IMG/VR virus record: IMGVR_UViG_3300042893_001481
From: a virus
Length of the DNA: 64,000 nucleotides
Direction: 5' to 3' (one strand)
A program made the translations under genes and the position numbers. Below the pieces are notes generated by a model, which saw only the letters and a list, made by a program, of their open reading frames with translations, made no database searches and was not told the origin of the DNA. Each line of letters starts with the position of its first letter. Position 1 is the first letter of the stretch. Below, piece by piece: positions 1,276 to 22,132 of the stretch.

Positions 1276-2943
1276 ATGTACATAATTGGAATTTCAGCAT
1301 TTTATCACGATTCGTCTGTTTCTTTGTTTAGAGACAATCAATTGATATTTGCTTGTGAGGAGGAGAAATTTACAGGGATTAAACACGATAGTTCATTTCC
1401 CGTAATGGCTTTAGATTATATCTATAAAAACTACAAAATTACAGACAAAAATCTACAAGCTGTGTGTTACTATGAAGACCCTAAATTAAAACACGAAAGG
1501 GTAATTCAGAACATTAAACCCCAATGGTTTAAAAACCCACTATATTCTTTAAGGTCTTATTTAAAAATAAAGAATAACGCAAAGGAGATTGATAAAAGAT
1601 TAAAAGAATTATCACCAAATGTGTTTTATTCAACACATCACGAAGCTCATCTTTATTATTCATATTACACTTCTCATTATGAGAAAGCTATGTGTTTATC
1701 TGTTGACGGTGTGGGTGAACACGATACACTTTCATTAGGAATATGTGATTATGGTGGAATTGAATATGGTAGTATGGCTAAATATCCTCACTCATTGGGT
1801 TTATATTACACCGCAATGACTACATTCCTTGGATTCAGACCAAATGAAGGTGAATACAAATTGATGGGTTTAGCATCTTACGGAGACCCAAACATTTACT
1901 TAGATAAGGTGAGAAAATTAATTTCATACAAAAATTCAAGTTTACAATGTAATATGGATGTATTTGTTTGGAATAAGTCAGATAAAATAATGTTCAATGA
2001 AAAATTACCAGAACTACTTGGGATTGAACAAAGATTACCTGAAGAGAAAATTGAAACGATACATGAAAATTTAGCCGCTTCAATACAAAAAGTATATGAA
2101 GAGGTTTTATTTGAAATATTAAAAACTGTATCAATTATTAGTAACAGTAGTAATTTATGTTTGGGTGGGGGTTGTGCATACAATGGAACCGCTAACGGAA
2201 AGATTTTAGAAAATTCTACTTTTAAAAGTTTATGGATTCCACCAGCACCATCGGATGCGGGGTCTGCAATCGGTGCCGTGGTTCACTACCTTGTTAAAGA
2301 AAAAAAGATTAGAAGTAAAATAACAAGAAACCCATTTTTAGGACCTGAATATCTTTATAACGATATTAAAAAGTCAATACACGGATTAAATTATAAAAAT
2401 TTTGTTAGTGAGAAAGGTTTAGTGGAATATGTTGCAAAAAAATTAAATGAAGGTAAAGTTGTTGGTTGGTTTCATGGTCATATCGAATTTGGGTCTAGAG
2501 CTTTAGGTAACAGATCAATATTAGCGAACCCAACCTTAGACGACATGAAGGACAGGATTAATAGAGTTATTAAGAAAAGAGAAGGGTTTAGACCATTCGC
2601 ACCAATGGTTATTAAAGACGAACAAGAGGTCTATTTTGAGATGAATGGTGACATACCATACATGAACCAAGTGGTACAGGTTAAACCCGAATATAGGTCT
2701 AAATTAAAGGCGGTAACTCATGTTGACGGAACCGCAAGAGTACAAACGGTATTCAAACATTCTATGATGTATAAGTTATTGGAAGAGTTCAAAAAACATA
2801 GCGGATTTCCAATACTTTTGAACACATCGTTCAATGTTAAAGATAAGACCATGGTTCTAACCCCAAAAGACGCAATCGATACATTTTTCGATACGGAAAT
2901 GGATTTATTGGTTATGGGAAATTACGTAATATATAAAAAATAA
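1276..2943 (+). CDS. Carbamoyltransferase, NodU/CmcH family
   Basis: HDSS, EEEKFTGIKH, HHEAH, DGVGE, EYKLMGLASYG, GGCAYN, EFGSRALGNRS, FRPFAP, HVDGTARVQTV, LNTSFN. Confidence 0.95.
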   Translation: MYIIGISAFYHDSSVSLFRDNQLIFACEEEKFTGIKHDSSFPVMALDYIYKNYKITDKNLQAVCYYEDPKLKHERVIQNIKPQWFKNPLYSLRSYLKIKNNAKEIDKRLKELSPNVFYSTHHEAHLYYSYYTSHYEKAMCLSVDGVGEHDTLSLGICDYGGIEYGSMAKYPHSLGLYYTAMTTFLGFRPNEGEYKLMGLASYGDPNIYLDKVRKLISYKNSSLQCNMDVFVWNKSDKIMFNEKLPELLGIEQRLPEEKIETIHENLAASIQKVYEEVLFEILKTVSIISNSSNLCLGGGCAYNGTANGKILENSTFKSLWIPPAPSDAGSAIGAVVHYLVKEKKIRSKITRNPFLGPEYLYNDIKKSIHGLNYKNFVSEKGLVEYVAKKLNEGKVVGWFHGHIEFGSRALGNRSILANPTLDDMKDRINRVIKKREGFRPFAPMVIKDEQEVYFEMNGDIPYMNQVVQVKPEYRSKLKAVTHVDGTARVQTVFKHSMMYKLLEEFKKHSGFPILLNTSFNVKDKTMVLTPKDAIDTFFDTEMDLLVMGNYVIYKK

Positions 2944-3128: not shown

Positions 3129-3563
3129 ATGATATATTGGTTTACAGGTCAACCCGGTGCAGGAAAAACTACATTGGCTAAACATTTAGTCACGTATTTT
3201 GAAAATAAAAATGTGATTCACATTGATGGAGATGATTTGCGTGACATCTTTCAAAATAAAGATTACTCAGAATTCGGTAGAAGAAAAAATATCGAAAGAG
3301 CCCAAGATATTGCTCGATTCATGAGTCAAAAAGGATTCAACGTTATTGTTTCGTTGGTGTCACCATACCGCGACCAACGAGAAGAATTCAAAGAAAATAA
3401 TCAAGTTAAAGAAATATATGTTCACACGACAGACGAAAGAGGTCGTGAAAATTTTCATGTGACCGATTATGAAACCCCTAATAATAATTTCATAGATATT
3501 GATACCACCAATAAAAAAGAGGTGGATTCATTCATCGAACTAACAGTTAAATTAGATATATGA
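3129..3563 (+). CDS. cysC: Adenylylsulfate (APS) kinase
   Basis: WFTGQPGAGKTT P-loop, IDGDDLR, GRRKNIER, SLVSPYRDQR. Confidence 0.9.
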   Translation: MIYWFTGQPGAGKTTLAKHLVTYFENKNVIHIDGDDLRDIFQNKDYSEFGRRKNIERAQDIARFMSQKGFNVIVSLVSPYRDQREEFKENNQVKEIYVHTTDERGRENFHVTDYETPNNNFIDIDTTNKKEVDSFIELTVKLDI

Positions 3564-3940
3564 GTAAAAAATACGCAATGTACATCGGAAGATGGCAAAA
3601 TTGGCACAAAGGACATGAGTGGTTAATCAACCAACAATTAAATCAAGGTAAAAATGTTTGGGTTGCAATTAGAAATGTTGACCAAGACGAGAATAATCCT
3701 AAAACGGCACAAGAAATTTTAAAGGAATTATCAAATGAACCTTTCTTTACAAATAATTTTGATAAAATTTTATTATCAATTATACCCGACATTGAATCGG
3801 TAAATTATGGTAGAGGAGTTGGTTATGATGTAATTTACCATGAACCACCTGCAGATGTTGCAGTTATAAGTGGAACGGCCATTAGGACTGGTCACATGAC
3901 ACCTGATGGTGAAATTAAATATGACCAAACTAAAGGATAA
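3560..3940 (+). CDS. HxGH-type nucleotidyltransferase (cytidylyltransferase-like)
   Basis: IGRWQNWHKGH, YGRGVGY, ISGTAIR. Confidence 0.75.
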   Translation: MSKKYAMYIGRWQNWHKGHEWLINQQLNQGKNVWVAIRNVDQDENNPKTAQEILKELSNEPFFTNNFDKILLSIIPDIESVNYGRGVGYDVIYHEPPADVAVISGTAIRTGHMTPDGEIKYDQTKG

Positions 3941-4149
3941 TGATAGTAGAACGTAAGAGACACATAGCAAAAACCATCTCATATCGTATTGTAAGTACGT
4001 TAATTGGTTTCCTATTAATGTGGTTGATAAGTGGATCAATTAAAGTCGGTGCTGCGTTTGGTGTTGCGGAATTGATTTATAAACCGATACAATACTATTT
4101 TCATGAGAGAATTTGGTATAAATGGATCAAGTACGGACTTAAAAAATAA
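3940..4149 (+). CDS. DUF2061-like small membrane protein
   Basis: KTISYRI...YYFHERIW with hydrophobic helices. Confidence 0.75.
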   Translation: MIVERKRHIAKTISYRIVSTLIGFLLMWLISGSIKVGAAFGVAELIYKPIQYYFHERIWYKWIKYGLKK

Positions 4150-4154
4150 AATAT

Positions 4155-4718
4155 ATGATTGGTAATATAGATATATTTGAAAACTTCCTGTCACCTGAAG
4201 AGTGTGATTCCATTTTAAATAAATGCAAACAAGAATTAATATTATCAGGTGCGGAGGTATATACTGGTGATTCTAATACCATACCTACTAAAAAAAATAG
4301 AAAATCATCAGTTGGTTGGATATCCGATTTAGGATTTTTAAATGAGAGATTAACAAATAAATTACGAGAAACTTTCAATATAAATGGTATGGAAGTTACG
4401 GGATTGGGAGATTACCAATTTACCGAATATAAAGAAGGTGAATATTTTGACTGGCACACCGATAGTACTGATGTTATATATAGAGATAGATTTACATCAA
4501 TAGTAATTCAGTTAAATGACACATACAAAGGTGGTGTATTAGAAATTAAAAATATTAAAGGTGAAATAGTACCAGTAGAAAATAAAATTGGAACGTTGTA
4601 TATTTTTAATTCAAGGTTACTTCATAGAGTAGTTCCAGTAATTGAGGGTGTACGTTATTCGTTAGTTAATTGGATATCATTGGTTAAAACCGATTTTAAA
4701 AAACAAAATTTAATATGA
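4155..4718 (+). CDS. 2OG-Fe(II) oxygenase (prolyl-hydroxylase-like)
   Basis: FLSPEEC, WHTD, GGVL, LHRVVPV, GVRYSLVNW. Confidence 0.9.
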   Translation: MIGNIDIFENFLSPEECDSILNKCKQELILSGAEVYTGDSNTIPTKKNRKSSVGWISDLGFLNERLTNKLRETFNINGMEVTGLGDYQFTEYKEGEYFDWHTDSTDVIYRDRFTSIVIQLNDTYKGGVLEIKNIKGEIVPVENKIGTLYIFNSRLLHRVVPVIEGVRYSLVNWISLVKTDFKKQNLI

Positions 4719-5332
4719 TAAACGGGTACCACATATTTGATGATATAATTCCAGAATTAAATCAAAATAAATTAGAAGAGTATGTAAAACTTTCAAATTT
4801 AAAGTGGAATTATCAACACAATATTACCGGTCAATATGGAGGAACGGAATCATTAAAATTACCTGCAAATGTTTTAAAAGGTATTGACATTAATGATAAT
4901 GATATTGTTAATATTATAAATTCAATAAAATTAAACTTATTGAATAAACTTAATGTTGAATTTCTGAGGGATTATAGATGTAAGATAAATTGGACTGTAC
5001 CGATAATTGAAAATTATGATTTTAAAAATTTAATACATGTTGACATGGATGTTAATCATATTGCGATTGTTTACTACATAAATAATTCCGATGGAAATAC
5101 TATTTTTTTAAACAATAAAAATGGTATTTCATCAGAATCTCGACAAAGTAATTTTATGAATATTAATATGGATGAATTTGAGATAGTAAATAGTGTACCC
5201 CCCAAAAAAGGAAGAGCAGTCATATTCAATGGTAACATTTATCACTATGGTGAATACCCAACTACAACCGATAGATTCGTAATTAATTTTGATTTAGTTG
5301 GTAAAGATAAGAATAAAAATAATTTATTATAA
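4715..5332 (+). CDS. 2OG-Fe(II) oxygenase
   Basis: IHVD, YYINNSDGNT, PKKGRAVIFNG.IYH, RFVINF. Confidence 0.8.
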   Translation: MINGYHIFDDIIPELNQNKLEEYVKLSNLKWNYQHNITGQYGGTESLKLPANVLKGIDINDNDIVNIINSIKLNLLNKLNVEFLRDYRCKINWTVPIIENYDFKNLIHVDMDVNHIAIVYYINNSDGNTIFLNNKNGISSESRQSNFMNINMDEFEIVNSVPPKKGRAVIFNGNIYHYGEYPTTTDRFVINFDLVGKDKNKNNLL

Positions 5333-5796
5333 TGGAAAAACGAGTTACACTTTTTAAAAATTTTTTATCCGTTGAGGAATGTGATACTCTTTTAAACACA
5401 TATAAAAACGAAACATTTGTGGATAGTGAATTTCTAAATAAAAAATTAAAAAATTATTTAGAAAAAATAAAATTTAATGGAAGTAGTGTAAGTGTAAATG
5501 AAATAAAAATTTACAATATATCTACCGAAAATACAAATGCATCATTTTTAGAAGAACCCAAATATGATATTACATTACTAATATCATTAAATTCCGATTT
5601 TGAAGGTGGAAGATTTATTTTCTTAAACAAAGATATTGATAAAAATATGCATATGGACAATTCACCAGGAGACATGATAGTTTTCTTTTCAAACATTAAT
5701 TATGGAAGTGGTAAAATAATCAATGGTACAAAATATTATTTAAAAATTGGCACTAACAATGTTTTAGATTCACAAATAACCAAATCACTTATTTAA
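5332..5796 (+). CDS. 2OG-Fe(II) oxygenase fold, metal ligands apparently lost
   Basis: FLSVEEC, LNSDFEGG, GDMIVF, GTKYYL retained; no HxD and distal His replaced. Confidence 0.6.
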   Translation: MEKRVTLFKNFLSVEECDTLLNTYKNETFVDSEFLNKKLKNYLEKIKFNGSSVSVNEIKIYNISTENTNASFLEEPKYDITLLISLNSDFEGGRFIFLNKDIDKNMHMDNSPGDMIVFFSNINYGSGKIINGTKYYLKIGTNNVLDSQITKSLI

Positions 5797-5801
5797 TTTT
5801 T

Positions 5802-6446
5802 ATGGAAAAAGTAATGTACGATACGAAAACATATCTTTACAGAGATATATTAAATCTTTCAGATTTTAAAGATGAGATTTTAAAAAAGTGTAATGAAATT
5901 ATAGAAAGTCTACCAAATGTTACTCAAGATGGTTATGGGTATTTTGAAGAAAGTAAAGATTTAAATTTCATAGGTGAAATTGAAATTAAAAATAAATTAG
6001 ATGAAATTTTAAAGTTTGGAATTCAATCATGTATTGATGTGTACCAACTTGAGTATAATTTACCATTTAATAAAATTAGTACAGATTGTTGGGTAAATGT
6101 GGTTAGAGCTAAAAATCCTGTACAATTTGATGACATTGAAAGTGAATTACATCAATATCATATACACACTGAGATAAATGAAAAAAATAAAAAATTCATA
6201 CCACATTTTACGTGGGTGTATTATATTCAAATGCCCGATAATTTAAAAGATGATGATGGTACTTTATATATTAAAGGTGAAAATGATATTGAATATTTTA
6301 TTTTACCAAAAGAAGGTGATTTTATAATAATGAAATCAGATTTACCTCACTCACCACAACATGCGTTAGACTCAACAAAAGATAGAATGGTATTGGCTGG
6401 AAATGTTGGATTTGAATTTATTAAAAAACAAAAATCATTGATATAA
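5802..6446 (+). CDS. 2OG-Fe(II) oxygenase-like protein (HxH type)
   Basis: WVN, HIH, VYYIQMP, PKEGDFIIM..DLPH, DRMVLAGN. Confidence 0.75.
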   Translation: MEKVMYDTKTYLYRDILNLSDFKDEILKKCNEIIESLPNVTQDGYGYFEESKDLNFIGEIEIKNKLDEILKFGIQSCIDVYQLEYNLPFNKISTDCWVNVVRAKNPVQFDDIESELHQYHIHTEINEKNKKFIPHFTWVYYIQMPDNLKDDDGTLYIKGENDIEYFILPKEGDFIIMKSDLPHSPQHALDSTKDRMVLAGNVGFEFIKKQKSLI

Positions 6447-6447
6447 T

Positions 6448-7677
6448 ATGGAATATAGTTTAGATAAAATTGTTATAGTTGGGGGAGGTACGGCGGGATG
6501 GTTATCCGCATTGTACTTAAATAGTAAATTTAAAAATTCAAAAATAACATTAATTGAGAGTGATGAAATTGGAATATTAGGGGCAGGAGAAGGAACAACT
6601 GGCAATATAGTAAAATTTTTAAATAATTTAGGAATTTCGCCTGATGATATGATTAATAACTGTGAGGCAACATTTAAAACAGGTATCGATTTTGAAAATT
6701 GGACAAAGCCCGGTTCGATATTTACTCACCCAATAGATTATAAACCAAAGGGTGATGGATATGCATATCATTTTAATGCTAGGTTATTAGTAAAATATCT
6801 TAAATCATTAGCAATAGAACGAGGTGTTAATTGGATTGAAGGAATTGTAACTGAACCAATTTTAAATGATACGAATCAAATTATTGGACTTAAAACAATT
6901 GATACAATGATTGATGCTAGCTTTGTTATTGATTGTAGTGGATTTAAACGATTATTGATTGGTAATCATTATAAATCAAATTGGATTTCATATGAAGAAC
7001 ATCTAAAAGTAAATACAGCAATTCCATTTTTTTTACCAACCAATAGTATAAACATCCGTACAACAACCAAATCTATTGCAATGAAATATGGATGGATGTG
7101 GCAAATCCCATTACAAAGTAGAAGGGGATGTGGGTATATATTCGATTCAACTGAAATTAGTGAGGATGAAGCTAAAAAAGAAATAATTGAATTCTTAGGT
7201 GCCGATGTTGATATTCAGTTTAATAAACCAATTAAATTTAAACCGGGTTCATATGAAAATGTATGGATTGAAAATTGTTTAGCAATCGGTTTAAGTGGAG
7301 GGTTTTTAGAACCATTAGAGGCAACATCAATAATGACTACAATTTTACAATTAGAGGCATTTTATGATACTACTTTAAAAAAAATGACATTGAAAAAATA
7401 TAATAAATTTGTAAATACAATCAATACTCAAAATATGATTTTTATTTATTATCATTATTTAACAAATAGAACCGATAGTACTTTTTGGAAAAAAGTTTCA
7501 GCTGCCGCAGCTGACTTACCATATCCGTTGGATTTATTAATAGATTCATCATATAATTTTAAACCAAAAAAACAATTGGTCGAATTATTTGAAAAGGACT
7601 CAACTATTATATTTGGTTCGTTTTCATATAATAAAATAAATAAAGGTATTAAACAAACCCAACCCCCATTGATATAA
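6448..7677 (+). CDS. Flavin-dependent tryptophan-halogenase-family protein
   Basis: GGGTAGW, GAGEGT, ATFKTGI (catalytic Lys), IDCSGF, WMWQIP, GFLEPLEAT. Confidence 0.9.
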   Translation: MEYSLDKIVIVGGGTAGWLSALYLNSKFKNSKITLIESDEIGILGAGEGTTGNIVKFLNNLGISPDDMINNCEATFKTGIDFENWTKPGSIFTHPIDYKPKGDGYAYHFNARLLVKYLKSLAIERGVNWIEGIVTEPILNDTNQIIGLKTIDTMIDASFVIDCSGFKRLLIGNHYKSNWISYEEHLKVNTAIPFFLPTNSINIRTTTKSIAMKYGWMWQIPLQSRRGCGYIFDSTEISEDEAKKEIIEFLGADVDIQFNKPIKFKPGSYENVWIENCLAIGLSGGFLEPLEATSIMTTILQLEAFYDTTLKKMTLKKYNKFVNTINTQNMIFIYYHYLTNRTDSTFWKKVSAAAADLPYPLDLLIDSSYNFKPKKQLVELFEKDSTIIFGSFSYNKINKGIKQTQPPLI

Positions 7678-8406
7678 ATGTTAATAGAAAACAAATTTTT
7701 ATTTATTAGTTTACCAAGATGTGCCTCCACATCCTTTTATATTTCCTGTTTAAGAAATGGTTTGGATGTAAAACATGTTGACCAAAATTTTGTAAATGGA
7801 TATAGTAATAGAATTGATTTAAGTTTAGATAATGAATCTCTTGCCGATAGATTGGTACATTTACATGAGACTATATACGATTTAAAAAACCATTTTGGGA
7901 ATGATTATGAGGTAATTACAATAAAAAGAAATAGACATGAAAGATTTATTTCGGTTTGGAAACATTTAATTGATATGATTTACATGGATTATGGTAAAAA
8001 ATATGGTGACATATTAAAAGAGTTAAATGAAGAAGATATTTTTTTTTATAAAAATACCGATATTATCAATATTAATGACATGTATAAAATGATTGATAAG
8101 TTTATAAAAAAAATTGGTTTGAATGAAATATATGATGAATATATACAAAATATGTTTAAAATAACATTTCACCCAACATCACATTGGCATAATAATGACT
8201 CAAATATAAAATGGTTTGAGTTTGGAAAATTTGATGAATTAGAAGAATGGGTTTCAAATAAAATTGGTAAACCATTTAAAATGGAAAAATCAAATGGAAG
8301 TCAACATTTCGAGTGCAATTTAAAAATGAATGATAAGTTTGTCACCCATTACAATTCTATTTATGATAGGTATGATATTTTTAAATCAAACAAAACATTG
8401 ATATGA
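7678..8406 (+). CDS. Sulfotransferase-family protein
   Basis: FISLPRCASTS (5'-PSB-like) and RNRHERFISVW (3'-PB-like). Confidence 0.7.
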   Translation: MLIENKFLFISLPRCASTSFYISCLRNGLDVKHVDQNFVNGYSNRIDLSLDNESLADRLVHLHETIYDLKNHFGNDYEVITIKRNRHERFISVWKHLIDMIYMDYGKKYGDILKELNEEDIFFYKNTDIININDMYKMIDKFIKKIGLNEIYDEYIQNMFKITFHPTSHWHNNDSNIKWFEFGKFDELEEWVSNKIGKPFKMEKSNGSQHFECNLKMNDKFVTHYNSIYDRYDIFKSNKTLI

Positions 8407-8708
8407 TAGATTTTAAAGATATTTATGAATCTTGGAAAAAATCAGGAAACCCCACCGATATTGAAAAGCAACATGCGTTCGAAAGGTTGTCAATATGTAA
8501 GGGTACCACCACCGCACCAAAATGTGAATATTATGTTGAAATTGTTAAGAATAAAAAGTGGTCATCTTTATGTGTAAGTTGTGGATGTCCCATACCTAAA
8601 AAAATATTTACAAATAAAACACCATCCTGTCCAAAAAATAAATGGGACATCATCGACCTTAATTACAACACTAATATTGTGATAAAAAACAAAAAAACCA
8701 TTTTATAA
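8403..8708 (+). CDS. Small Cys-rich putative metal-binding protein
   Basis: RLSIC...C...CVSCGC...K...CPKNKW. Confidence 0.65.
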   Translation: MIDFKDIYESWKKSGNPTDIEKQHAFERLSICKGTTTAPKCEYYVEIVKNKKWSSLCVSCGCPIPKKIFTNKTPSCPKNKWDIIDLNYNTNIVIKNKKTIL

Positions 8709-8771
8709 CGTATATACATATATATTATAAATAAATTTTTGAAAATGAATATTTATTATTCCCTTTTAAGA

Positions 8772-8779
8772 TATTTATA
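8772..8779 (+). promoter_or_regulatory. TATTTATA putative late-promoter motif upstream of ATP-grasp-Hint gene
   Basis: Same motif precedes the tail fibre and putative head-protein genes in this window. Confidence 0.5.
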
Positions 8780-8805
8780 AGTATATTTAAAATAAATAAA
8801 GATTT

Positions 8806-10308
8806 ATGAAAGCAACAATAATTGGTAGTGATTTACTACAACAAGGTGATTCGGTAAAGATTTTAGAAATAAACACTAATACCACCATATATAACGAAGG
8901 GGCTGATTTATTGGATTATGTTGCATTATTTGACATGTTAATCCAAAATAATATTACGGAATTCCACTATATATATACGGATTTAGAGGCGTTTTTACCA
9001 TTAAAATTCCCACATAGATTTGAAGAAATCTTAAAAGAAAAATGTGTTGAAAATGGAATGACATACACACCACATTTAGTGGCTCAAAATTCTGTAACAG
9101 TTCCTTACATTGAGGACGCTGTTAATAAATTTATTCTAAGACAATCTTTTGACACAACCGCTTTGGTGGACGAAACATATTGTGCGGATAAGTATGAATT
9201 TTTTAATTTAATGAGTGGTTCCACGTTTATTCCAAATACGTACTTTAACACTACCGAATTGTCATTAGATACTTTGTCTGAATTAAATTTCACAAATGGG
9301 TTGGAACCAAACTTAGTAAAAAAACATAGATATCCCTCATATGATGCAAAACAATTACCCGCATTATATTCAATTGAAAATCAATTAGATTTTGATACGT
9401 TTAAAACAACAATAGATAATACAGAAAATAATTTAATACAGGAATTCATATATGACACACAAAACATTGTTGATGGTAGATATTGTGTTATTAGAGGTAT
9501 CGATATAATATATGGTTCTAATTTAGATGTGATTAATTTAGGTGGGTATAGACAATCTACATTGTTACCATTATCTTTTGCCACAAATGAATTTAAAACG
9601 GACAGTAGAGAATTAAAACAAAAAAGTAGATATAAATATATAACTAAAGCCTTAGGTAAATGGGGTATGGTTGACTATCACGTAGAAGACGATAGTAATA
9701 TTTTAAAATACGATGGATCACTTGCAGACCTTAGTACCATTCAAATTGGTGACTACATGCGTTCAATAGATTTTACCGATTATAATGGAAATAAAGCTGG
9801 AGAAGCTGATGTTACAAATATGCAAGCATTTGGTTGGGATTGTGATTTAGTACAAGCGAATGCGACATTGACACAATTAAGTACAACTTTACAAGAAGTT
9901 GTCTCCGCCGTTGTTGACACAATTCACATTAGAATTACATTAGATAATGGGTTGAGTTGGGTCGATTCACCTAGTTGTAAGTACCTTATTGAAGAATCTG
10001 GATCAACTGAAACCAGATTTGATAATGTTAATAATTTATATATTGGTGATAAATTAGTGGTTACCGATTCCAACACCAATCAATTAACAACGGTAGCAAT
10101 TACGGGATTGGAAATGGAATATGCTTCTAAAACAATTTATGGTTTAGATTTTGCTCCATCTGATTTGTTCTTAGTTGATGTTGGAGAAGGATTATATAGT
10201 GTAATGCACAACCCGACATGTTGGTGTAGTTATTCATATTGTGGTAATTGGTGTTACGAATCGTGGTGCCCAACTTGTAGGTGGGGTGGTGGTCCTGCGA
10301 AACTTTAA
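8806..10308 (+). CDS. Circularly permuted ATP-grasp domain + Hint domain + C-terminal Cys/Trp-rich peptide
   Basis: N-terminal GSDLL..VKILEINTN (ATP-grasp ExN motif moved to the N-terminus), DKYEF..IPNT, LVKK, IQEFI; Hint-like DGS..IQIGD, LYIGD, IYGL..VMHN; tail PTCWCSYSYCGNWCYESWCPTCRWGGGPAKL. Confidence 0.7.
   Translation: MKATIIGSDLLQQGDSVKILEINTNTTIYNEGADLLDYVALFDMLIQNNITEFHYIYTDLEAFLPLKFPHRFEEILKEKCVENGMTYTPHLVAQNSVTVPYIEDAVNKFILRQSFDTTALVDETYCADKYEFFNLMSGSTFIPNTYFNTTELSLDTLSELNFTNGLEPNLVKKHRYPSYDAKQLPALYSIENQLDFDTFKTTIDNTENNLIQEFIYDTQNIVDGRYCVIRGIDIIYGSNLDVINLGGYRQSTLLPLSFATNEFKTDSRELKQKSRYKYITKALGKWGMVDYHVEDDSNILKYDGSLADLSTIQIGDYMRSIDFTDYNGNKAGEADVTNMQAFGWDCDLVQANATLTQLSTTLQEVVSAVVDTIHIRITLDNGLSWVDSPSCKYLIEESGSTETRFDNVNNLYIGDKLVVTDSNTNQLTTVAITGLEMEYASKTIYGLDFAPSDLFLVDVGEGLYSVMHNPTCWCSYSYCGNWCYESWCPTCRWGGGPAKL
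9679..10212 (+). other. Hint (intein-like) domain, predicted C-terminal cleavage only
   Basis: HVEDDSNILKYDGSLADLSTIQIGDYMRS (block A, His at position 1 instead of Cys); DSPSCKYL at block B (no TxxH); IYGLDFAPSDLFLV...MHN (blocks F/G intact). Confidence 0.7.
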
Positions 10309-10335
10309 AATAAAACAAATTAAATAAAAAATAAC

Positions 10336-10476
10336 ATGGCAAAGAAAGAAAGAGTAGAAAGACCGTTACAAACAATAAAAACGAACATAACCCCAATTAC
10401 AACCGATTTAAAAGTTAAAGTGGCAAATGCCTTCCAATCATTTGTAACGGCAATCAAAGTAAAACACCTTTCATAG
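10336..10476 (+). CDS. Small basic protein (46 aa), not in ORF track
   Basis: MAKKERVERPLQTIKTNITPITTDLKVKVANAFQSFVTAIKVKHLS; A-rich leader; fills the gap between 10308 and 10485. Confidence 0.65.
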   Translation: MAKKERVERPLQTIKTNITPITTDLKVKVANAFQSFVTAIKVKHLS

Positions 10477-10484
10477 TATGTATT

Positions 10485-11306
10485 ATGAAATTAGTTACAT
10501 TTGGGGATAGTTGGACTGAAGGGGTTGGGGGCAATATTAGTGAGGAATCGGCAACAGATATACCTGAAGAAAAAACAAACATAAGACAAAAATATTGTTG
10601 GCCAAAACACTTATCGGAATTACTCACTTGTGAAGTTAAAAATGTTGGGGTCGGATCATTTTCTAACAACTCCATATTCAATTCAATTTCTCGTCAATTA
10701 AAAAATGGAATCATCACTCAAGATGATTTCGTTGTTATTATGTGGTCATCATCTTTACGGGATTCATTACCTTTTTTCCCTACTGAAGATGATTTTTTTA
10801 TTTGGGGTAAACGATATAAAAGTAAAGAACACCTTTTAAAGTATATTTTTGATGGAGTTAATAGTGATAATATAAACTATAATAGGGCAGAAAAAAACTT
10901 TAGAGATTATTACATTAATAATTTATTTAGTGATACCTACTACGATATAGTAAATCAAAATTACATATTACATCTTCAATTTATGTTTAAAGAATTAGGT
11001 ATTAGATACCTTTTTTGTGATGGATTTGATATAATGATTAATAAAAATATTGATACGTTAGTTGACAAATCCCATTTAATTGAGAGTAATAGATATTGGG
11101 GTTATAGAGATAAAACTATGGCAAATTTATTAATTAATACTAATAGAAAAGATGTGTGGCAAGATAATAACCATTGGGTTGATACCACAGCAGGTAAACA
11201 CCCAAGTAGTAATGGATATAAATTGATTGCTGAGGAATTATATAAATTTATAAATGAGGGTAATTTATTAGTACCCATCAAACTAAAAAATTCAAATCTA
11301 TTATGA
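10485..11306 (+). CDS. SGNH/GDSL hydrolase-family protein
   Basis: FGDSWTEG, GVGSFSN, KHPSSNGY. Confidence 0.8.
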   Translation: MKLVTFGDSWTEGVGGNISEESATDIPEEKTNIRQKYCWPKHLSELLTCEVKNVGVGSFSNNSIFNSISRQLKNGIITQDDFVVIMWSSSLRDSLPFFPTEDDFFIWGKRYKSKEHLLKYIFDGVNSDNINYNRAEKNFRDYYINNLFSDTYYDIVNQNYILHLQFMFKELGIRYLFCDGFDIMINKNIDTLVDKSHLIESNRYWGYRDKTMANLLINTNRKDVWQDNNHWVDTTAGKHPSSNGYKLIAEELYKFINEGNLLVPIKLKNSNLL

Positions 11307-11869
11307 ATTATACCATAAATAGTAATTTTTGTAATAGTGAAACTGCTAAAGATATCATTGAGTTCTGTATTAAATTTGGTGAACCGTTTTCATACAACCC
11401 GTCAGAACGATGGGATTGTAGACGAATATATGATTCTGATTTTAAAAAGAGAATAATTGATTTATTAATAACCAATTATAAAAACGGATATTTTAAATTA
11501 TGGTTTGATTACTCTACCTTTAATTTAAAGAATTTTAATATCAGTCTAACTTCATATTATGATGGTAGATATCTCAATTTGCATAAAGATAAATCAAGTG
11601 AATTAACGACCGTGATTGTCCTTTCAGATAACTTTGAAGGTGGTCAGTTTGCTTTATGTGGTGATAAAAATCCACCTATTAATTTTGAAACCCTTGAAGG
11701 TATAAGTACATTTGACTTAAAATTGGGTGATTTAATTTCATTTAATGGTTCCGAAACCTATCACGGAGTGTTACCGGTAACAAATGGAACGAGGTATGCC
11801 TTGAATATTTGGATGACAGAAACTGATTTTGATTACCCTAAATTAAAATCTAATAAAACTGTTATATAA
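11303..11869 (+). CDS. 2OG-Fe(II) oxygenase
   Basis: LHKD, FEGGQF, YHGVLPVTNGTRYALNIW. Confidence 0.9.
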   Translation: MNYTINSNFCNSETAKDIIEFCIKFGEPFSYNPSERWDCRRIYDSDFKKRIIDLLITNYKNGYFKLWFDYSTFNLKNFNISLTSYYDGRYLNLHKDKSSELTTVIVLSDNFEGGQFALCGDKNPPINFETLEGISTFDLKLGDLISFNGSETYHGVLPVTNGTRYALNIWMTETDFDYPKLKSNKTVI

Positions 11870-11903
11870 TGTTAACTAAAAAAAATAATACAAATAAACT
11901 AAT

Positions 11904-12422
11904 ATGAAACTATCAATCGATGATTTAGTTTTTTTAAAATCTGAATTAAATAACACTCGAATAATGAATGAAGAAGATTTAAGCTATATAAAATCAGCAC
12001 ATCCCCAATTATATCATACCACAAATCCAGAAAAAGCCGATATTCTATCTCTCTTTCCAAATGATAGTTGGGTTTATACTTTAGAAAATAAAAATTTAAA
12101 TGAATTTATTTGTAATAAATTTGAAGAACCCATTGATAATTTATACATAATGCATAGATTAATATATGGTGAAAATGGTTATGCTAAAAAACATAAAGAT
12201 AGATTTACAACACATAAGACCGTTAGTATTTTATTGTCATCCGATTTTACAGGTGGTGAAATGTATATAAATGATAAAGATCTATCATTGACAAATGAAG
12301 GAGATTATATTGTATTCAATGGGGGTAATGAATCCCACGAAGTAAAAAAGATAATTAATGGGGAACGAGATGTATTAATAATATGGTTTTCAAAAAAGAA
12401 AGCAGAATTTAGTATCATATGA
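11904..12422 (+). CDS. 2OG-Fe(II) oxygenase
   Basis: KHKD, FTGGEM, HEVKKIINGERDVLIIW. Confidence 0.85.
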   Translation: MKLSIDDLVFLKSELNNTRIMNEEDLSYIKSAHPQLYHTTNPEKADILSLFPNDSWVYTLENKNLNEFICNKFEEPIDNLYIMHRLIYGENGYAKKHKDRFTTHKTVSILLSSDFTGGEMYINDKDLSLTNEGDYIVFNGGNESHEVKKIINGERDVLIIWFSKKKAEFSII

Positions 12423-12898
12423 AAATATTAATAATAGCATTACCCAGAACCGGCTCAACTTCTCTTTTAAAAAAAATATCTAAAGATAGAAATCTAAAAC
12501 CATTCTTTGAACCATTTGATGGGACTGGTAGAGTTATCTATAACAATGAAGATAATTCGGTTGTTAAAACAATTATATCACACTACCAAAATAATTTAGA
12601 ACTTATTAATAACTTTGATGAAATTATACTTCTTAATAGAAAAAATATAAAAGAGTTAATAGAATCTCACTCATATCAAACGTATTTTTTAAAAACAGGT
12701 TATAATTCTAATAATCCATATGTCTATAAAGAACCACCACAAGAAATAATAAATTTGTGTACGTCTGATATACTAAATTGGAATGAGGAAATCAACCAGC
12801 TTTCAAAAATTACTAAAATACCAATTACATACTATGAAGATATTTTTGATAATAATTCAGCGGATAGGTTACGAATGTCAATAACTAATATAATTTAA
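12419..12898 (+). CDS. Sulfotransferase-like P-loop protein
   Basis: IIALPRTGSTSL, FEPF, YYEDIF; paralog of 62079..62636. Confidence 0.65.
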   Translation: MKILIIALPRTGSTSLLKKISKDRNLKPFFEPFDGTGRVIYNNEDNSVVKTIISHYQNNLELINNFDEIILLNRKNIKELIESHSYQTYFLKTGYNSNNPYVYKEPPQEIINLCTSDILNWNEEINQLSKITKIPITYYEDIFDNNSADRLRMSITNII

Positions 12899-13944
12899 TG
12901 ATAGATTTAAAACAATATACGTGTAGTAATCCATTTACCACTTTAGAAATACATGATAATGTTGGGTTTGTTTGTTGTCCATCTTGGTTACCAAATAAAA
13001 TAGAACTTAATGATACATCTTTAAAAAATGTATATAATAGTGAACCGGTTGTGGATATTAGAAATTCCATTTTAGATGGTTCATTTAAATATTGTAACAA
13101 AGAATTATGTCCACATTTAAGTAGATTGTTAAACTATGGTGTCACCTCTGGCCCTATTCACTTAAAATCAAATTCAAAATATACAACACCAATTATTGAA
13201 CCAACCACACCGACCACAATTTTAATGAATTTTGATAGGACCTGCAATTATAAATGTCCATCGTGTAGAGTCGACTTAATTGTTGAAAGTAGTAAAGGTA
13301 TAGAACGAATAGAAAAAACAATAGACGAGATTGATACCTATTATTCGGCAAACGTAAAAACTTTATACATTACTGGTACTGGAGATCCCTTTGTTTCAGT
13401 TAGTTTTAGAAATTATTTAAGAAACTTTAATCCAAAAAAATACCCAAAATTAACAAGTATACATTTTCATACAAATGCATCAATGTGGACAAAGGAAATG
13501 TGGGACAGTATGCCAAATGTTCATAAGTATGTAACAACGTGTGAGATATCAATAGATGCAGGAACACAAAACACCTATGAAAATAAAACCAGATTAGGTG
13601 GTAAGTGGGATACCTTAATAAATAATTTAAAATTTATTTCTACAATAGAAACATTGAAATCAGTAAAAACATCGTTTGTTGTTCAAGATAGTAACTATAT
13701 GGAAATGGAAACCTTTTATAATTTAATGTATTCTATTTTTGGAAAAAAGGTAAATGTGTTTTTTGGTAAAATAGTTAATTGGGGTACATTCTCAGATGGT
13801 GAATTTAAATTAAAACAGGTTTGGGATACCAATCACCCTGAGCATGAGTTATTTAAAAAAGAATTTAATAGGATATGGAAAAACACTAATCTATTTCATA
13901 ATTTATATGAATTTGTCGACACCACACAAAAAACTTTAATATAA
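12898..13944 (+). CDS. Radical SAM enzyme with N-terminal SPASM/twitch-like domain
   Basis: CNYKCPSC, GTGDPF, HTNA, ISIDAG, RLGGKW; N-terminal CSNPF...CC...C...CP. Confidence 0.9.
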   Translation: MIDLKQYTCSNPFTTLEIHDNVGFVCCPSWLPNKIELNDTSLKNVYNSEPVVDIRNSILDGSFKYCNKELCPHLSRLLNYGVTSGPIHLKSNSKYTTPIIEPTTPTTILMNFDRTCNYKCPSCRVDLIVESSKGIERIEKTIDEIDTYYSANVKTLYITGTGDPFVSVSFRNYLRNFNPKKYPKLTSIHFHTNASMWTKEMWDSMPNVHKYVTTCEISIDAGTQNTYENKTRLGGKWDTLINNLKFISTIETLKSVKTSFVVQDSNYMEMETFYNLMYSIFGKKVNVFFGKIVNWGTFSDGEFKLKQVWDTNHPEHELFKKEFNRIWKNTNLFHNLYEFVDTTQKTLI

Positions 13945-14630
13945 TGTCCAATATAAGAAGTGTGGGATTTATTGAAAAACATTTTGATGAACATTCAGAA
14001 TTTATTATAAGTAAAATAAATGAATCATCAATATCTTTAAGTAGAATATCAAATAAAGATTTAAATGAATTAATTTATCCGATTGTACATTTAATTGATT
14101 TTGAATTCAACGGAGATTCTAAATTTTTATTGAATAAAACAATAGATGAAATGGATTTGATGTATTCAAATTGGTATAAGTTGCACGAAAAAATGTTTAC
14201 AACATTTAATTATGTGGAAAAAAATAATATAATTTTAGACTATAGAAAAAATGGAGTTGGGTATTATTGGGTTGATTTAAATTGTTATTATAGTTATGAA
14301 ATGTTATTTAGATTACATAACTGTGGTAGAGTCAACTCCCATCAAAATCTTTTGGAACTTAGAGAATATGATATAAATGGATACAACTATAGTAGGGTTG
14401 TTGTTGTCATATGTAACAATGGATTTATAAATCAAATTAAAGGAGATTATAATCTGAAACCTGATTTTATTTATAAAGATTATATATATGATTTATTTTT
14501 AAATTATAAAGAATTAAAGGGATTTAAAATATTAACTCCAAATAATAATAATTTTACCCATATGGATTTAAATGATACAGAGTTATCTAATTTAAAAAGA
14601 ACACGTCCAGAATTCTTTTTCCTAATATAA
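13944..14630 (+). CDS. Hypothetical protein
   Basis: 228-aa ORF coupled to radical SAM gene (TAATG overlap); HNCGR, QIKG..N.KP. Confidence 0.6.
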   Translation: MSNIRSVGFIEKHFDEHSEFIISKINESSISLSRISNKDLNELIYPIVHLIDFEFNGDSKFLLNKTIDEMDLMYSNWYKLHEKMFTTFNYVEKNNIILDYRKNGVGYYWVDLNCYYSYEMLFRLHNCGRVNSHQNLLELREYDINGYNYSRVVVVICNNGFINQIKGDYNLKPDFIYKDYIYDLFLNYKELKGFKILTPNNNNFTHMDLNDTELSNLKRTRPEFFFLI

Positions 14631-14679
14631 TTTTTCAATTTATTTGATATTTTCGTGGATTTTCTCTATATTATCTATA

Positions 14680-17400
14680 ATGAAAATCTTAGCACACGCC
14701 CCCTTTATTGGTACTACTGGTTATGCCAATCATGCACGTTCATTCTTCACGGCACTTAACAAATACCACCAAGTTAAAGTTAGAAATTTAACCGTTGGGG
14801 GTAGTTGGTCAGGTTATAACAACACCCCACATGACGGGGAATCCTACATTACGGATGAGATGAAGGAAATGTTACACCAACAAACACTAATTAATGGGGA
14901 TAACTCAAGAACCGATTATCCAATTTACGGACACGACCCCAACTTTATACCCGATGTTCACATTGTATTGATGGAGAATAACAGTCATTACTATTATGAC
15001 AATTACGAGGGTTATAAAATCGCATATTGTGTTTGGGAGTCAACAAGATTTAGTGATGGTTTCTTTAAAAGATTACTCACGTTTGATGAGATGTGGGTAC
15101 CATCACAATGGCAGTATGATTGTATTGTGGAACAAGGTTATCCCAAAGAAAAAGTCTTTATAGTACCCGAAGGGGTTGATGTTGATACCTTTAAACCTAC
15201 AAACAAAACAATAAAAACAAAGAAGACTAAATTTGTATTGTTTGGTAGATGGGAATGGAGAAAAGGGACTACCGAAATTTTACAAGCATTCTCAGAAGAA
15301 TTTAAAGATACTGACAATGTTGAATTAATCGCTTCGGTTGAAAATCCATATCCTTCGGACGGCTTAAAAACAACTGAGGAAAGAATTAAACATTATGGTA
15401 TTGACACTAAGAAGATTAAGTTCATAAATTTTCCATCAAGAGATGAATATGTTAGATATCTACAAGAAGCTAACGTGTTTGTTTCGTGTGCAAGAAGTGA
15501 GGGTTGGAACTTACCATTAATAGAAGCTATGGCTTGTGGTACACCCTCCATATACTCAAATTGGGGTGGACAATTACAATTTACATCAGATGGTGGTCTA
15601 CCCGTGGATATTAAAGGTTTAACACCCGCAAATCACGAACACAAAGACTTTCCAGGTGATTACTGTGAACCCGATTGGGAAAATTTAAAATCTCAATTAA
15701 GAAATGCTTACGAGAATAGTAAACAACATAAAGTTTTGGCTCTAACCGAATCTAAAACCATTCATGAAAATTTTAATTGGGACACTATAGCTAAAGGTGC
15801 TACTGATATATTAGAAAGAACCAATGAACATTTTGCATTTGTAACCACAGGTAATTTACAATATATGCCGGTCATTGAAAAATTAGTTCAATCATTGTTA
15901 CAATTCTCAAGACATAAAATTATAGTGTATGGTGTTGATTGTGAAGTACCATTTGATTATCCAAACGTGATTAAAAAAACAATTAACCCACCAAAAATAT
16001 CTGAACATGATAAGTGGTATTGGAAACAACATGCATGTTTAGAATCATTGGATTATGGTTTTGATAACTATGTGTGGATTGATGGTGATGTAGTTGTGAA
16101 TCATAATGTTGATAATGTAAAAGAATATTTCTCACAATTAACAACATACCCAATTCCCGACATTCATGTTCAAACGGAATTTTTTGGAACCTACAATGAT
16201 GGTAAGGACTCACAACTATTCAATGAACAATTAGCTAACGAATGGAAAATTACTAAAAGAAATCCTTATGCACATATTTGTTTCTACATTTATAATTCAA
16301 ATTGTCATAAATGGTTTACGGAAATTCTTGAACATTACACAAAAGTAATTGAGAATAATCCTAAAGATTATAAACGTCTATATCTCTGGAATGATGAGGG
16401 TATCGATAACGCAATGAGATGGAAATATGGATGTGATAAGTTCTTACCACTATCAAACTTTGACACATCGGGTTATGATGGTGACTTAGGTAACACTAAT
16501 GAAATGTTACATCACTTTTATAAGTTTTGGAATGAAGAAGGTCCACAAAATTTCAATAGGATATTTGGTTATCAATTCATACCAAAAGATAAATCTAAAA
16601 TCATTTATTTTCATGGTAATAAACATGCTGAAATATCTGACAAGATGATTGAATTCATTACAATGATGAAAAACAATTCATTTTATAAATCAGAACAATT
16701 CTACACCGATGTTTACAAAGTTGAAAATTTAGGAGACATTAAAGATGTTCAAGGAGGTACGATTGAAATAGCAAACAAGTATGGTTGGTTCAGAGCCATT
16801 TATCACGAAATATTTAATCTGTTAGATTATTATAAGGACAGACAAAAAACAATCAATGAAGGAGATGTGGTTGTTGATTTAGGTGGTAATGTTGGAATAT
16901 TCAACAGATGGGCATATAGTCAAGGTGCTAGTAAAGTAATTTCATTTGAACCTGATAAACGATACTTCAAATTACTATCATTAAATGCCGACCCACGTTC
17001 CATATTGTTTAATGCCGCAATGGCCGATACCATTGATGAATTTATATTGTATCAATCAGAACACTTAGGTGGATCAACATTACTCGGTTCAGGTGATAGT
17101 GTGAATTATCCCGTTAGAACATATACTTTAAACTATCTTTTTGAAACTGGTTTAGTTGACAAGATTGATTTTCTTAAAGTTGATATTGAGGGTGCCGAAC
17201 TACATGCTTTTGCTGGTATATCGGATGATAATTTAATGAAAGTTAAAAACATTGCAATGGAATATCACCACGGTCAATTGAACTACAATGAAGAACTAAG
17301 GCAAGGATTAATAGATAGAATGAATGGATTGGGGTTCCAATCATATCTTTTATTTATGGGTGGAAATAACAAATTACAAATGATATATTTTACAAGATGA
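14680..17400 (+). CDS. Multidomain GT4 glycosyltransferase + GT-A-like domain + FkbM methyltransferase
   Basis: TGYANH, RKG, SEGWNLPLIEAMACG; WIDGD; VVDLGGNVG, FEP, FLKVDIEGAE; start moved to ATG 14680. Confidence 0.85.
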   Translation: MKILAHAPFIGTTGYANHARSFFTALNKYHQVKVRNLTVGGSWSGYNNTPHDGESYITDEMKEMLHQQTLINGDNSRTDYPIYGHDPNFIPDVHIVLMENNSHYYYDNYEGYKIAYCVWESTRFSDGFFKRLLTFDEMWVPSQWQYDCIVEQGYPKEKVFIVPEGVDVDTFKPTNKTIKTKKTKFVLFGRWEWRKGTTEILQAFSEEFKDTDNVELIASVENPYPSDGLKTTEERIKHYGIDTKKIKFINFPSRDEYVRYLQEANVFVSCARSEGWNLPLIEAMACGTPSIYSNWGGQLQFTSDGGLPVDIKGLTPANHEHKDFPGDYCEPDWENLKSQLRNAYENSKQHKVLALTESKTIHENFNWDTIAKGATDILERTNEHFAFVTTGNLQYMPVIEKLVQSLLQFSRHKIIVYGVDCEVPFDYPNVIKKTINPPKISEHDKWYWKQHACLESLDYGFDNYVWIDGDVVVNHNVDNVKEYFSQLTTYPIPDIHVQTEFFGTYNDGKDSQLFNEQLANEWKITKRNPYAHICFYIYNSNCHKWFTEILEHYTKVIENNPKDYKRLYLWNDEGIDNAMRWKYGCDKFLPLSNFDTSGYDGDLGNTNEMLHHFYKFWNEEGPQNFNRIFGYQFIPKDKSKIIYFHGNKHAEISDKMIEFITMMKNNSFYKSEQFYTDVYKVENLGDIKDVQGGTIEIANKYGWFRAIYHEIFNLLDYYKDRQKTINEGDVVVDLGGNVGIFNRWAYSQGASKVISFEPDKRYFKLLSLNADPRSILFNAAMADTIDEFILYQSEHLGGSTLLGSGDSVNYPVRTYTLNYLFETGLVDKIDFLKVDIEGAELHAFAGISDDNLMKVKNIAMEYHHGQLNYNEELRQGLIDRMNGLGFQSYLLFMGGNNKLQMIYFTR

Positions 17401-18056
17401 GTACATTAAACAAAATAGCACAAAGTTATGGAACTGATAAAAGTTCCGATTGTCACAATTATTGTGATAAATACTCTAATTATCTTCCATTCAAAAGATA
17501 TGATAAACTAAACATCATGGAGATTGGTGTATTAGACGGACAATCTGTAAAAACATGGAAAGAATATTTCTATCGTTCCAATATATTAGGTATCGATATT
17601 AACCCTGATTGTAAGAAGTATGAGGAATCAGGTATATCAGTTGAGATAGGTTCACAAGCTGACGGTAACTTCCTATCAAGAATTTGGCAACAATACGGAC
17701 CATTTGACATGATATTAGATGATGGTTCACATATGAATAGTCACGTGATATTTTCATTTGAACATTTATTTCAATCTGTAAAATCGGGTGGTATATATAT
17801 TGTTGAAGATTGTGCAACATCATATTGGAGTCATTGGGAAGGTGGTTATCTTAAAGAAACAACAATGATGGAATATTTTAAAAGATTAACCGATGATGTA
17901 AATTTTAGAGGGGTAATGAATCTCGATAAACCAAATGTTCATGCAAGAAGAGAAGATTGGTGTACGGAAACATTATTAAAAGAACAATCAGATTGTAGAA
18001 CGGACATTGAATCCATAACATTCCTTAATGGAATAATATTAATTAGAAAACGTTAA
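17397..18056 (+). CDS. Class I SAM-dependent (sugar) O-methyltransferase
   Basis: GTDK..HNY, MEIGV, GIDI, GSQ, ILDDGSH, GGIYIVED. Confidence 0.85.
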   Translation: MSTLNKIAQSYGTDKSSDCHNYCDKYSNYLPFKRYDKLNIMEIGVLDGQSVKTWKEYFYRSNILGIDINPDCKKYEESGISVEIGSQADGNFLSRIWQQYGPFDMILDDGSHMNSHVIFSFEHLFQSVKSGGIYIVEDCATSYWSHWEGGYLKETTMMEYFKRLTDDVNFRGVMNLDKPNVHARREDWCTETLLKEQSDCRTDIESITFLNGIILIRKR

Positions 18057-18066
18057 AATATAATAC

Positions 18067-20202: not shown

Positions 20203-20232
20203 ATTTCTTTGTCCCAAATAAAAATATTGAAG

Positions 20233-20239
20233 TATTTAT
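20233..20239 (+). promoter_or_regulatory. TATTTAT putative late-promoter motif
   Basis: Upstream of tail fibre gene; recurrent motif. Confidence 0.5.
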
Positions 20240-20262
20240 TGTTGTATAATACAATATAAGAT

Positions 20263-22059: not shown

Positions 22060-22132
22060 TAGAAGAATATAATACCTATCATGTTGATAAAAAGATATGA
22101 TAGGTATTTATAAAATATAATTTAAATAAGAA

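Follow-up and report, generated by a model that had tools for sequence, protein, structure and literature searches.

We find that enzymes of several unrelated folds, encoded in one gene block of the viral record IMGVR_UViG_3300042893_001481 (IMG/VR; the whole 64,000-nucleotide stretch analysed is called the window), share a short C-terminal tail, and that this tail is most likely a C-terminal client motif within an undescribed pathway. In the block, at positions 4155-14630, 13 of the 15 open reading frames (ORFs) end in [LIV][LI], which is the meaning of 'tagged' in all counts given here. The two exceptions are a protein of 500 amino acids (aa), encoded at 8806-10308, and a 46-aa ORF at 10336-10476. 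In gene order, the tagged C-termini are KKQNLI, KNNLL, TKSLI, QKSLI, QPPLI, NKTLI, KKTIL, NSNLL, NKTVI, EFSII, ITNII, QKTLI and FFFLI; ORF translation reproduced every C-terminus listed in a preliminary description of the window. That description also held that the ending is rare in the rest of the window, and indeed only 5 of the 79 other ORFs of at least 60 aa end in [LIV][LI]. We put at about even the chance that the tail is a docking motif, which would recruit the enzymes to the 500-aa protein, itself a predicted peptide precursor.

Our comparison drew on 42 loci centred on a halogenase and 80 centred on the precursor, all from IMG/VR, together with an NCBI contig and a complete genome; the position statistics come from the 87 loci with a homolog of the 500-aa protein. 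Within five positions of the gene for this protein, 429 of the 481 dereplicated genes (89%) are tagged, compared to 63 of 538 (11.7%) at nine positions or farther; the same dipeptide occurs inside these proteins at a frequency of 3.7%. The tagged fraction is 80-97% at positions -5 to -1 and +2 to +5 and drops to ∼10% past ±8 positions. In the complete genome, of 289 kb, the ending is found on 23 of 395 ORFs, and 11 of these lie together at 31.6-54.4 kb, around the 500-aa gene. Downstream of the block in the window, tagging ends exactly at 14630.

The 481 dereplicated tails are conserved above the protein body at five positions, numbered back from the last residue (0): Lys at -6 (53%), Lys at -3 (54%), Ser or Thr at -2 (62%), Leu at -1 (73%) and Ile at 0 (66%), with -5 and -4 free. 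If the aliphatic residues are pooled, Leu or Ile is present at -1 in 91% and at 0 in 92% of the tails, and the consensus tail is K-x-x-K-[S/T]-[L/I]-[I/L]-COOH. Conservation in orthologs, which the preliminary description had named as a check, holds for 12 of the 13 enzyme families, in which 86-100% of members keep the tag, even at 30-40% identity. Halogenase orthologs are tagged in 57% of cases, because this set includes untagged halogenases of the cyanophage type. The tail varies with the enzyme family and not with the phage, and is unchanged across lineages of 25-34% GC from many samples; these lineages probably infect many hosts.

A tail of this kind might have no function in the protein, and might be a by-product of AT-rich composition, of translational coupling through ATGA and TAATG overlaps, or of recombination at gene junctions. 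In line with such an origin, the overlaps bias the last codon to NNA, with an excess of ATA, and among distant genes 30% of those that overlap the next gene end in [LIV][LI], compared to 10% of non-overlapping genes. If the overlaps were responsible, the enrichment should disappear when genes are compared within one class of junction, but it stays in every class. With 4- or 1-nt overlaps, 95% of block genes and 30% of genes elsewhere are tagged (P = 3e-31); with gaps of 0-3 nt, 92% and 13% (P = 1e-20); and with gaps of at least 10 nt, 73% and 10% (Fisher P = 6e-26), so that the reported persistence of the tag where genes do not overlap is confirmed. In genes with a gap of at least 10 nt, Ile at 0 and Leu at -1 are encoded as in the genome at large. 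Furthermore, AGT and TCN codons both occur for Ser at -2, six different codons are used for Leu, and each of the three stop codons is present. Finally, ATGA overlaps of this kind are also used in a minus-strand operon of seven genes at 24729-30067, of which only one ends in [LIV][LI] (28697-30067, KVI) and none has the Lys and Ser/Thr pattern. These junction, codon and operon controls refute an origin in composition or coupling, to which we assign a negligible probability. Because the enrichment survives the junction controls, codon usage is that of the background, and the Ser, Leu and stop codons are mixed, the tail is selected at the protein level, in agreement with the selection on protein that had been proposed.

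The tail is an appended, unstructured, Lys-rich extension. Tagged 2-oxoglutarate (2OG) oxygenases extend ∼12 residues beyond the point, just past the last strand, at which untagged homologs from other phages end. Similarly, in an AlphaFold model of the sulfotransferase-like protein encoded at 7678-8406 (mean predicted local distance difference test score, pLDDT, 91.6), the last helix spans residues 219-233 and is followed by coil, with pLDDT of ∼50 at the end. The placement of the tag on a tail beyond the catalytic domain is therefore upheld by homolog comparison as well as by the model. The signal works in trans, independent of any one operon junction, because tagged genes are also found ∼47 kb from the block, at 60926-62636.

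The protein around which the tagged genes cluster (8806-10308, plus strand) consists of a predicted ATP-grasp ligase domain (residues ∼1-285), a Hint domain (291-469) and a terminal peptide (470-500, ending PAKL). It is the sole protein inside the tagged block that is always untagged (0 of 87 loci), in keeping with the earlier proposal that the signal sits on the enzymes and not on the precursor. It belongs to no Pfam family (the Pfam RimK match is weak, E = 0.27), and a PDB sequence-profile search with the family alignment returned nothing meaningful. At least 597 metagenomic relatives exist, but there are no matches in 50,697 GenBank phage records, and only one in 185,579 prokaryote species genomes, on a 5-kb contig of a metagenome-assembled genome (MAG), where the upstream gene is tagged. 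The protein is acidic, with a net charge of about -18 in the ligase domain and about -20 in the Hint domain in every homolog.

An AlphaFold model of the whole protein has a pLDDT of 81, which falls below 50 (∼30) in residues 471-500. Residues 1-285 match the ligases GspS, YjfC and YgiC in Foldseek searches (7uk6, 7uk8 and 2ioa; probability 1.0, E = 4e-6 to 4e-5) over ∼310-330 columns, with low template-modelling scores since the model is of a two-domain protein. Of the residues of the ATP-grasp signature, E21, N23, K173 and Q212 never vary and E213 and F214 hardly do. Residues 291-469 form a complete Hint fold, an assignment based on the fold search, which matched the Hedgehog, bacterial intein-like (BIL) and mini-intein structures 1at0, 2lwy and 6y75 (Z ∼17; root-mean-square deviation ∼2 Å; 135-146 residues aligned). 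We had considered that the enzyme tail might complete a Hint domain with a missing strand, and dropped this idea because the fold in the model is complete. The pair H468-N469, directly before the peptide, is invariant, while intein position 1 aligns to Tyr291/His292 and not to Cys or Ser. Since position 1 thus offers no N-terminal nucleophile, only C-terminal cleavage is possible, and the domain is predicted to be a cleaving domain and not a splicing intein.

The terminal peptide of 31 aa contains 6 Cys, 4 Trp and 3 Tyr in the window, and across 120 homologs (P0001-P0120) the core is variable, with ∼6 Cys and ∼6 Trp or Tyr per ∼29 residues. With its disordered, variable core, adjoining tailoring enzymes and predicted release by the Hint domain, the protein would resemble the precursors of peptides that ribosomes make and that are modified after translation (RiPPs). 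The precursor itself ends in K-[ILV]-COOH in 87 of the 120 homologs, often after a Gly- or Pro-rich stretch; in the window (10286-10305) this end looks like a shortened version of the enzyme tag. Long forms of the protein, which continue past the peptide into a second, complete Hint domain, occur in four loci (L006:6758-8677, L017:2076-4001, L019:6805-8688 and L023:6764-8689). The second domain begins C-F-[IV]-G and matches Pfam Intein_splicing (E = 3e-10); hhalign of the middle domain with the second Hint of the L006 type gave a 37-column local match with a probability of 28%. In these long forms, a Hint domain that cleaves at its C-terminus thus precedes the peptide and one that cleaves at its N-terminus comes after it, an order that resembles artificial peptide-cyclising arrangements. 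No longer fused forms (876-2500 aa), and hence no Rosetta-stone fusion, were found. There were 78 shorter matches, mostly on short contigs; all 11 that we inspected, among them the ones from the longest contigs, were N- or C-terminal pieces, and none showed a clean split between ligase and Hint. Our literature search returned no paper that describes this ligase fold fused to a Hint domain and a peptide.

The presence of the tail follows the presence of the precursor gene within single enzyme families. The 2OG oxygenases are tagged in 136 of 136 cases in loci with the 500-aa gene, but in only 2 of 20 without it; the corresponding figures are 48 of 51 and 2 of 37 for halogenases, and 11 of 11 and 0 of 7 for a second 2OG family, that of the gene at 4715-5332. 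Homologs in Pelagibacter phage HTVC008M have no tail. Among untagged genes, that of the 500-aa protein alone goes with the tag in each of the four lineages of the block. In addition, the Lys-rich tails and the acidic 500-aa protein are of opposite charge, which we count in favour of docking. The preliminary description had left the choice between docking and a shared degron; the comparative genomics favours docking to a shared scaffold or substrate, whereas a degron of the ssrA type is weakened by the tmRNA tag of a relative, which ends VAA.

The inference that these observations support best is that the 500-aa protein would be the reader of the tail and its peptide the substrate. As a short linear docking motif, the tail would mark the enzymes that share one substrate, the peptide rich in Cys, Trp and Tyr with which the 500-aa protein ends. 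The ligase and Hint domains, which make up the large, acidic, folded portion of that protein, would read the tail and keep each enzyme beside the disordered peptide, which the Hint domain could afterwards free by Asn cyclisation. The usual polarity of RiPP pathways would then be inverted, with the peptide label on the enzymes and the folded reader on the substrate. Within the folded part, the ligase domain is by analogy an attractive candidate for the reader. GspS-type ligases act on or bind the free C-terminal carboxylate of a peptide, and since the domain has the fold of GspS, YjfC and YgiC, it could plausibly have a pocket that accepts a free C-terminus; it is attractive also because the precursor itself has a K-[ILV]-COOH terminus in most homologs. 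Several points weigh against docking on the precursor. The association between tag and precursor is partly confounded by synteny, as tagged genes are members of the block by definition. Precursor subfamilies that share 29-85% identity all go with the same tag, such that no co-variation can be read. Some enzymes of the block are untagged, for example the L006-type halogenase and members of the 228-aa family, and the reader of the tail may be encoded by the host.

A different partner, such as a scaffold, a chaperone, a membrane or exporter site, or a host PDZ-type domain, might read the tail and leave the folded part of the precursor untouched. We regard this as unlikely, though a serious alternative, as tagged genes occur outside the block too and the link between the tail and the 500-aa protein is one of association. 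The preliminary description had pointed to class I PDZ ligands, and the resemblance itself stands: Ser or Thr is at -2 in 7 of the 13 window tails, and ∼62% of all tails fit the pattern. A phage-encoded domain that would bind them is not in evidence, since PDZ, PDZ_2 and PDZ_6 (PF00595, PF13180 and PF17820) have no match in three related phage genomes of 245-316 kb, while matches were obtained in each of the 14 control genomes. PDZ proteins of bacteria are found mainly in the periplasm, whereas the tagged enzymes need cytoplasmic cofactors, and no second untagged gene is found with the tag throughout the four lineages, which further argues against a separate phage-encoded partner. The tail might alternatively be a shared degron or unfoldase signal, which would time removal of the enzyme set, and one common signal would indeed give co-ordinated turnover. 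In the ClpX signal of MuA type a hydrophobic C-terminus comes after basic residues, and a Lys-rich stretch with two aliphatic end residues resembles it. The tmRNA tag of the complete relative, however, ends LAVAA while the tails end L-I, so that the ssrA-type comparison fails, and the sharp preference for Ser/Thr at -2 and Lys at -6 is foreign to known degrons. The same tail is kept across lineages that differ in GC content and probably in host, and a degron leaves unexplained why only enzymes adjoining the precursor would need it. We consider such a role improbable.

The ligase domain might also use the tail as its substrate, activating the C-terminal carboxylate of the enzymes and coupling it to an amine. 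The amine may be the N-terminus of the released peptide, its conserved penultimate Lys or a polyamine, and the enzymes would thereby be modified or tethered. The fold of the N-terminal domain is that of ligases that activate C-terminal carboxylates, the ATP-grasp signature residues are invariant or nearly so, and the tag-like end K-[ILV]-COOH of most precursors would suit this chemistry. On the other hand, spending a peptide on each enzyme would be wasteful and fits poorly with ∼ten enzymes acting on one peptide, and the long precursors of the L006 type lack a Lys-bearing end although the enzymes in these loci are still tagged. We give this possibility little weight, if slightly more than the degron. 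In its most specific form, the system would be an ATP-driven, intein-derived protein-peptide conjugation, in which the ligase joins the carboxylates of tagged enzymes to the Hint-released peptide or to another amine; we think this a long shot. That the enzymes would then be clients and K-x-x-K-[ST]-L-I-COOH the signature of an acceptor site seems to us equally doubtful.

Docking on the precursor would relate the system to RiPP pathways, but with the parts exchanged. In RiPP logic, a leader peptide on the substrate is recognised by a PqqD-like RiPP recognition element (RRE) on each tailoring enzyme. As in those pathways, a ribosomal precursor with a disordered Cys/Trp-rich end lies among genes for hydroxylases, halogenases, sulfotransferases and radical S-adenosylmethionine (SAM) enzymes, and a short peptide signal connects enzymes and substrate. 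Here, however, the peptide is on the enzymes, and the substrate carries a folded ligase-Hint part of 470 aa; release is predicted to be by the built-in Hint domain and not by a separate protease; and this system is known from genes alone. Pfam scans of the tagged enzymes found no PqqD-like RRE at E values up to 0.01-5. The literature that we searched contained no paper on this layout or on enzyme-borne docking tails in RiPP pathways. The Hint domain itself resembles BIL and Hedgehog Hint domains in its fold and terminal His-Asn, but differs in having Tyr/His at position 1.

The closest analogies in principle are other very short motifs at the extreme C-terminus. Peroxisomal targeting signal 1 (PTS1; -SKL, read by Pex5) and the cargo-loading peptides of encapsulins are likewise carried on flexible tails by proteins of unrelated folds and lead them to one destination. 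The PTS1 consensus is [SAC]-[KRH]-[LM]-COOH, the encapsulin loading peptide is GSL-rich and the clamp-binding motif is QL[SD]LF; the tail K-x-x-K-[ST]-L-I fits none of these, and the setting is a phage, so that the analogy is one of principle only. With class I PDZ ligands (x-[S/T]-x-hydrophobic-COOH) the tails share Ser/Thr at -2 (62%), Ile or Leu at 0 (92%) and the free carboxylate, but the phage tails also conserve Lys at -3 and -6.

Tandem arrays of dioxygenase, halogenase and sulfotransferase genes have been described in cyanophages such as Syn9 (Iyer et al. 2010, PMC2938197). The arrays of Syn9 and HTVC008M, which are T4-like marine phages, encode these enzyme families too, but they lack the 500-aa ATP-grasp/Hint precursor and their enzymes have no tail. 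We tried one family from cyanophage-type loci (family 12; ends DADIL and NSDVL) as a case of the tag outside the system, and rejected it as a single conserved family with an unrelated ending.

If the tail does dock enzymes on the precursor, ribosomal peptide tailoring would have a second, inverted solution to substrate recognition, in which a portable seven-residue label admits any small enzyme to the pathway. This would explain the swapping of 2OG oxygenases, halogenases, sulfotransferases, radical SAM and SGNH enzymes in the block, and would offer an engineering handle, as a new enzyme could be recruited by adding the tail. The precursor is widespread in metagenomes, is present in T4-like phages of 245-316 kb and is absent from deposited phage genomes, and therefore points to a class of viral peptide chemistry that is uncharacterised. 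For annotation, an ORF that ends K-[ST]-L-I in these phages is probably in this pathway, wherever it is located.

The preliminary description had counted thirteen unrelated folds among the tagged proteins. Six of the thirteen belong to the 2OG-Fe(II) oxygenase superfamily and there are about six folds in all, but clearly unrelated enzymes do share the tail. All of the genes described in this and the following three paragraphs are on the plus strand, except where only positions are given for side observations. The block opens with a 2OG-Fe(II) oxygenase of 187 aa at 4155-4718 (KKQNLI; Pfam 2OG-FeII_Oxy_3, E = 1.6e-13), followed by a 2OG-oxygenase-like protein of 205 aa at 4715-5332 (KNNLL; the same family at E = 1.7e-4, below cut-off), a 154-aa protein at 5332-5796 (TKSLI) that clusters with 2OG oxygenases by BLAST and has 5 of 5 orthologs tagged, and a 2OG-oxygenase-like protein of 214 aa at 5802-6446 (QKSLI; Pfam E = 3.7e-4, below cut-off), of whose orthologs 92% are tagged, with Lys at -6 near-invariant. 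The two remaining members of the superfamily are 2OG-Fe(II) oxygenases from the second half of the block: one of 188 aa at 11303-11869 (KSNKTVI; Pfam E = 4.9e-10), with 46 of 46 orthologs tagged and the next gene 34 nt away, and one of 172 aa at 11904-12422 (EFSII; Pfam E = 3.2e-6; 7 of 7 orthologs tagged).

A compact homolog of flavin-dependent Trp-halogenases, of 409 aa, is encoded at 6448-7677 (QPPLI; Pfam Trp_halogenase, E = 3.6e-93). The median length of tagged halogenases is 413 aa, compared to 487-509 aa for untagged phage halogenases, making them ∼75-95 aa shorter, a difference consistent with a tail that takes the place of a substrate-binding part. The sulfotransferase-like protein at 7678-8406 has 242 aa, a PRCASTS motif at residues 13-19 and the consensus tail, KSNKTLI; the top matches in a fold search were all sulfotransferases, although weak (E = 0.05-0.5), and 66 of 66 orthologs are tagged. 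A P-loop sulfotransferase-like protein of 159 aa is found at 12419-12898 (ITNII; motif ALPRTGSTS; 61 of 62 family members tagged), and the motif PR-x-[GA]-ST is common to these two ORFs and to one that begins at 62079. The other tagged products of the block are a Cys-rich 101-aa protein at 8403-8708 (KNKKTIL), with no Pfam match and with 89% of orthologs tagged, the tail being retained down to 32% identity; an SGNH/GDSL-type hydrolase-like protein of 273 aa at 10485-11306 (NSNLL), with an N-terminal FGDSW block, DUF6071 and Lipase_GDSL matches below the Pfam cut-off and 97% of orthologs tagged; a radical SAM enzyme of 348 aa at 12898-13944 (QKTLI), with CxxxCxxC at residue 116, a Pfam Radical_SAM match just below cut-off (E = 7.5e-6) and 12 of 14 orthologs tagged; and a 228-aa protein at 13944-14630 (FFFLI), which has no Pfam match, is weakly tagged and belongs to the least consistent family (8 of 13 tagged). 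Upstream, a 46-aa ORF at 1119-1259 begins MKLICFGDSWT and resembles the N-terminus of an SGNH paralog of 10485-11306; from this likeness it is probably a gene remnant.

Outside the block, a 383-aa protein at 60926-62077 ends YKTLI, and a sulfotransferase-like protein of 185 aa at 62079-62636 (motif AEPRSGSTN) ends TQDLI. These are probably further members of the tagged set, as the latter is a paralog of 12419-12898. Two ORFs at 46-294 and 297-1097, which end NNII and NEII, have no Pfam match and no relatives among the loci compared; they are possible outlying members.

Tagging per family is bimodal, and the families that lack the tail lack it almost entirely. Directly before the block are genes for an APS kinase (3129-3563; Pfam APS_kinase, E = 1.8e-18; 1 of 31 family members tagged), a 126-aa protein (3560-3940; 0 of 32) and a DUF2061 protein (3940-4149; Pfam DUF2061, E = 2.8e-17; 0 of 38). 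In the complete 289-kb genome this trio is 200 kb from the block. The APS kinase group plausibly supplies 3'-phosphoadenosine-5'-phosphosulfate (PAPS) and need not touch the peptide, and its lack of the tail therefore fits a label for enzymes that meet one macromolecular substrate. No member is tagged in the families of the precursor (0 of 66), of a carbamoyltransferase (0 of 12) or of the downstream glycosyltransferase and methyltransferase genes (0 of 8 and 0 of 7). The basic 46-aa ORF at 10336-10476 (KVKHLS; no Pfam match) has orthologs directly after the 500-aa gene in at least 26 of the 87 loci, which end KVKHL[S/GE] and are never tagged. The carbamoyltransferase of the window (1276-2943) ends IYKK, untagged as in its 12 relatives; a copy in the complete genome (67686-69410), ∼15 kb from the block there, ends RKKIL. 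The untagged stretch downstream of the block, 14644-22059, encodes a 918-aa fusion of a glycosyltransferase with a methyltransferase, a methyltransferase, a protein of 711 aa and a fibre protein that matches tail-fibre PHROGs, and this module appears to serve a separate function.

On the evidence of its relatives' genes, we assign the window to a large uncultured T4-like phage, because three large IMG/VR relatives (245, 289 and 316 kb) encode a T4 gp23-type major capsid protein; the 289-kb relative (G003) has terminal repeats and is rated complete. The window has a GC content of 27-33%, nearly all of its genes are on one strand, and a tail-fibre/baseplate-type protein is encoded at 20263-22059. 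Its halogenase is closest to that of Pelagibacter phage HTVC008M (40% identity) and to cyanomyovirus halogenases, and megablast of the 4155-14630 block returned no nucleotide matches in the 50,697 GenBank phage records. There are no tRNA genes in the window; G003 has, within 11 kb at 19030-30272 (L124-L125), 26 tRNA genes and the tmRNA gene whose tag ends LAVAA. One further locus with this block is a 10-kb contig filed as a giant-virus MAG (L002; IMG/VR GVMAG-M-3300009164-63). Its proteins are 80-85% identical to those of the block and 10 of its 12 ORFs are tagged, and the contig probably belongs to a T4-like phage rather than to a giant virus.

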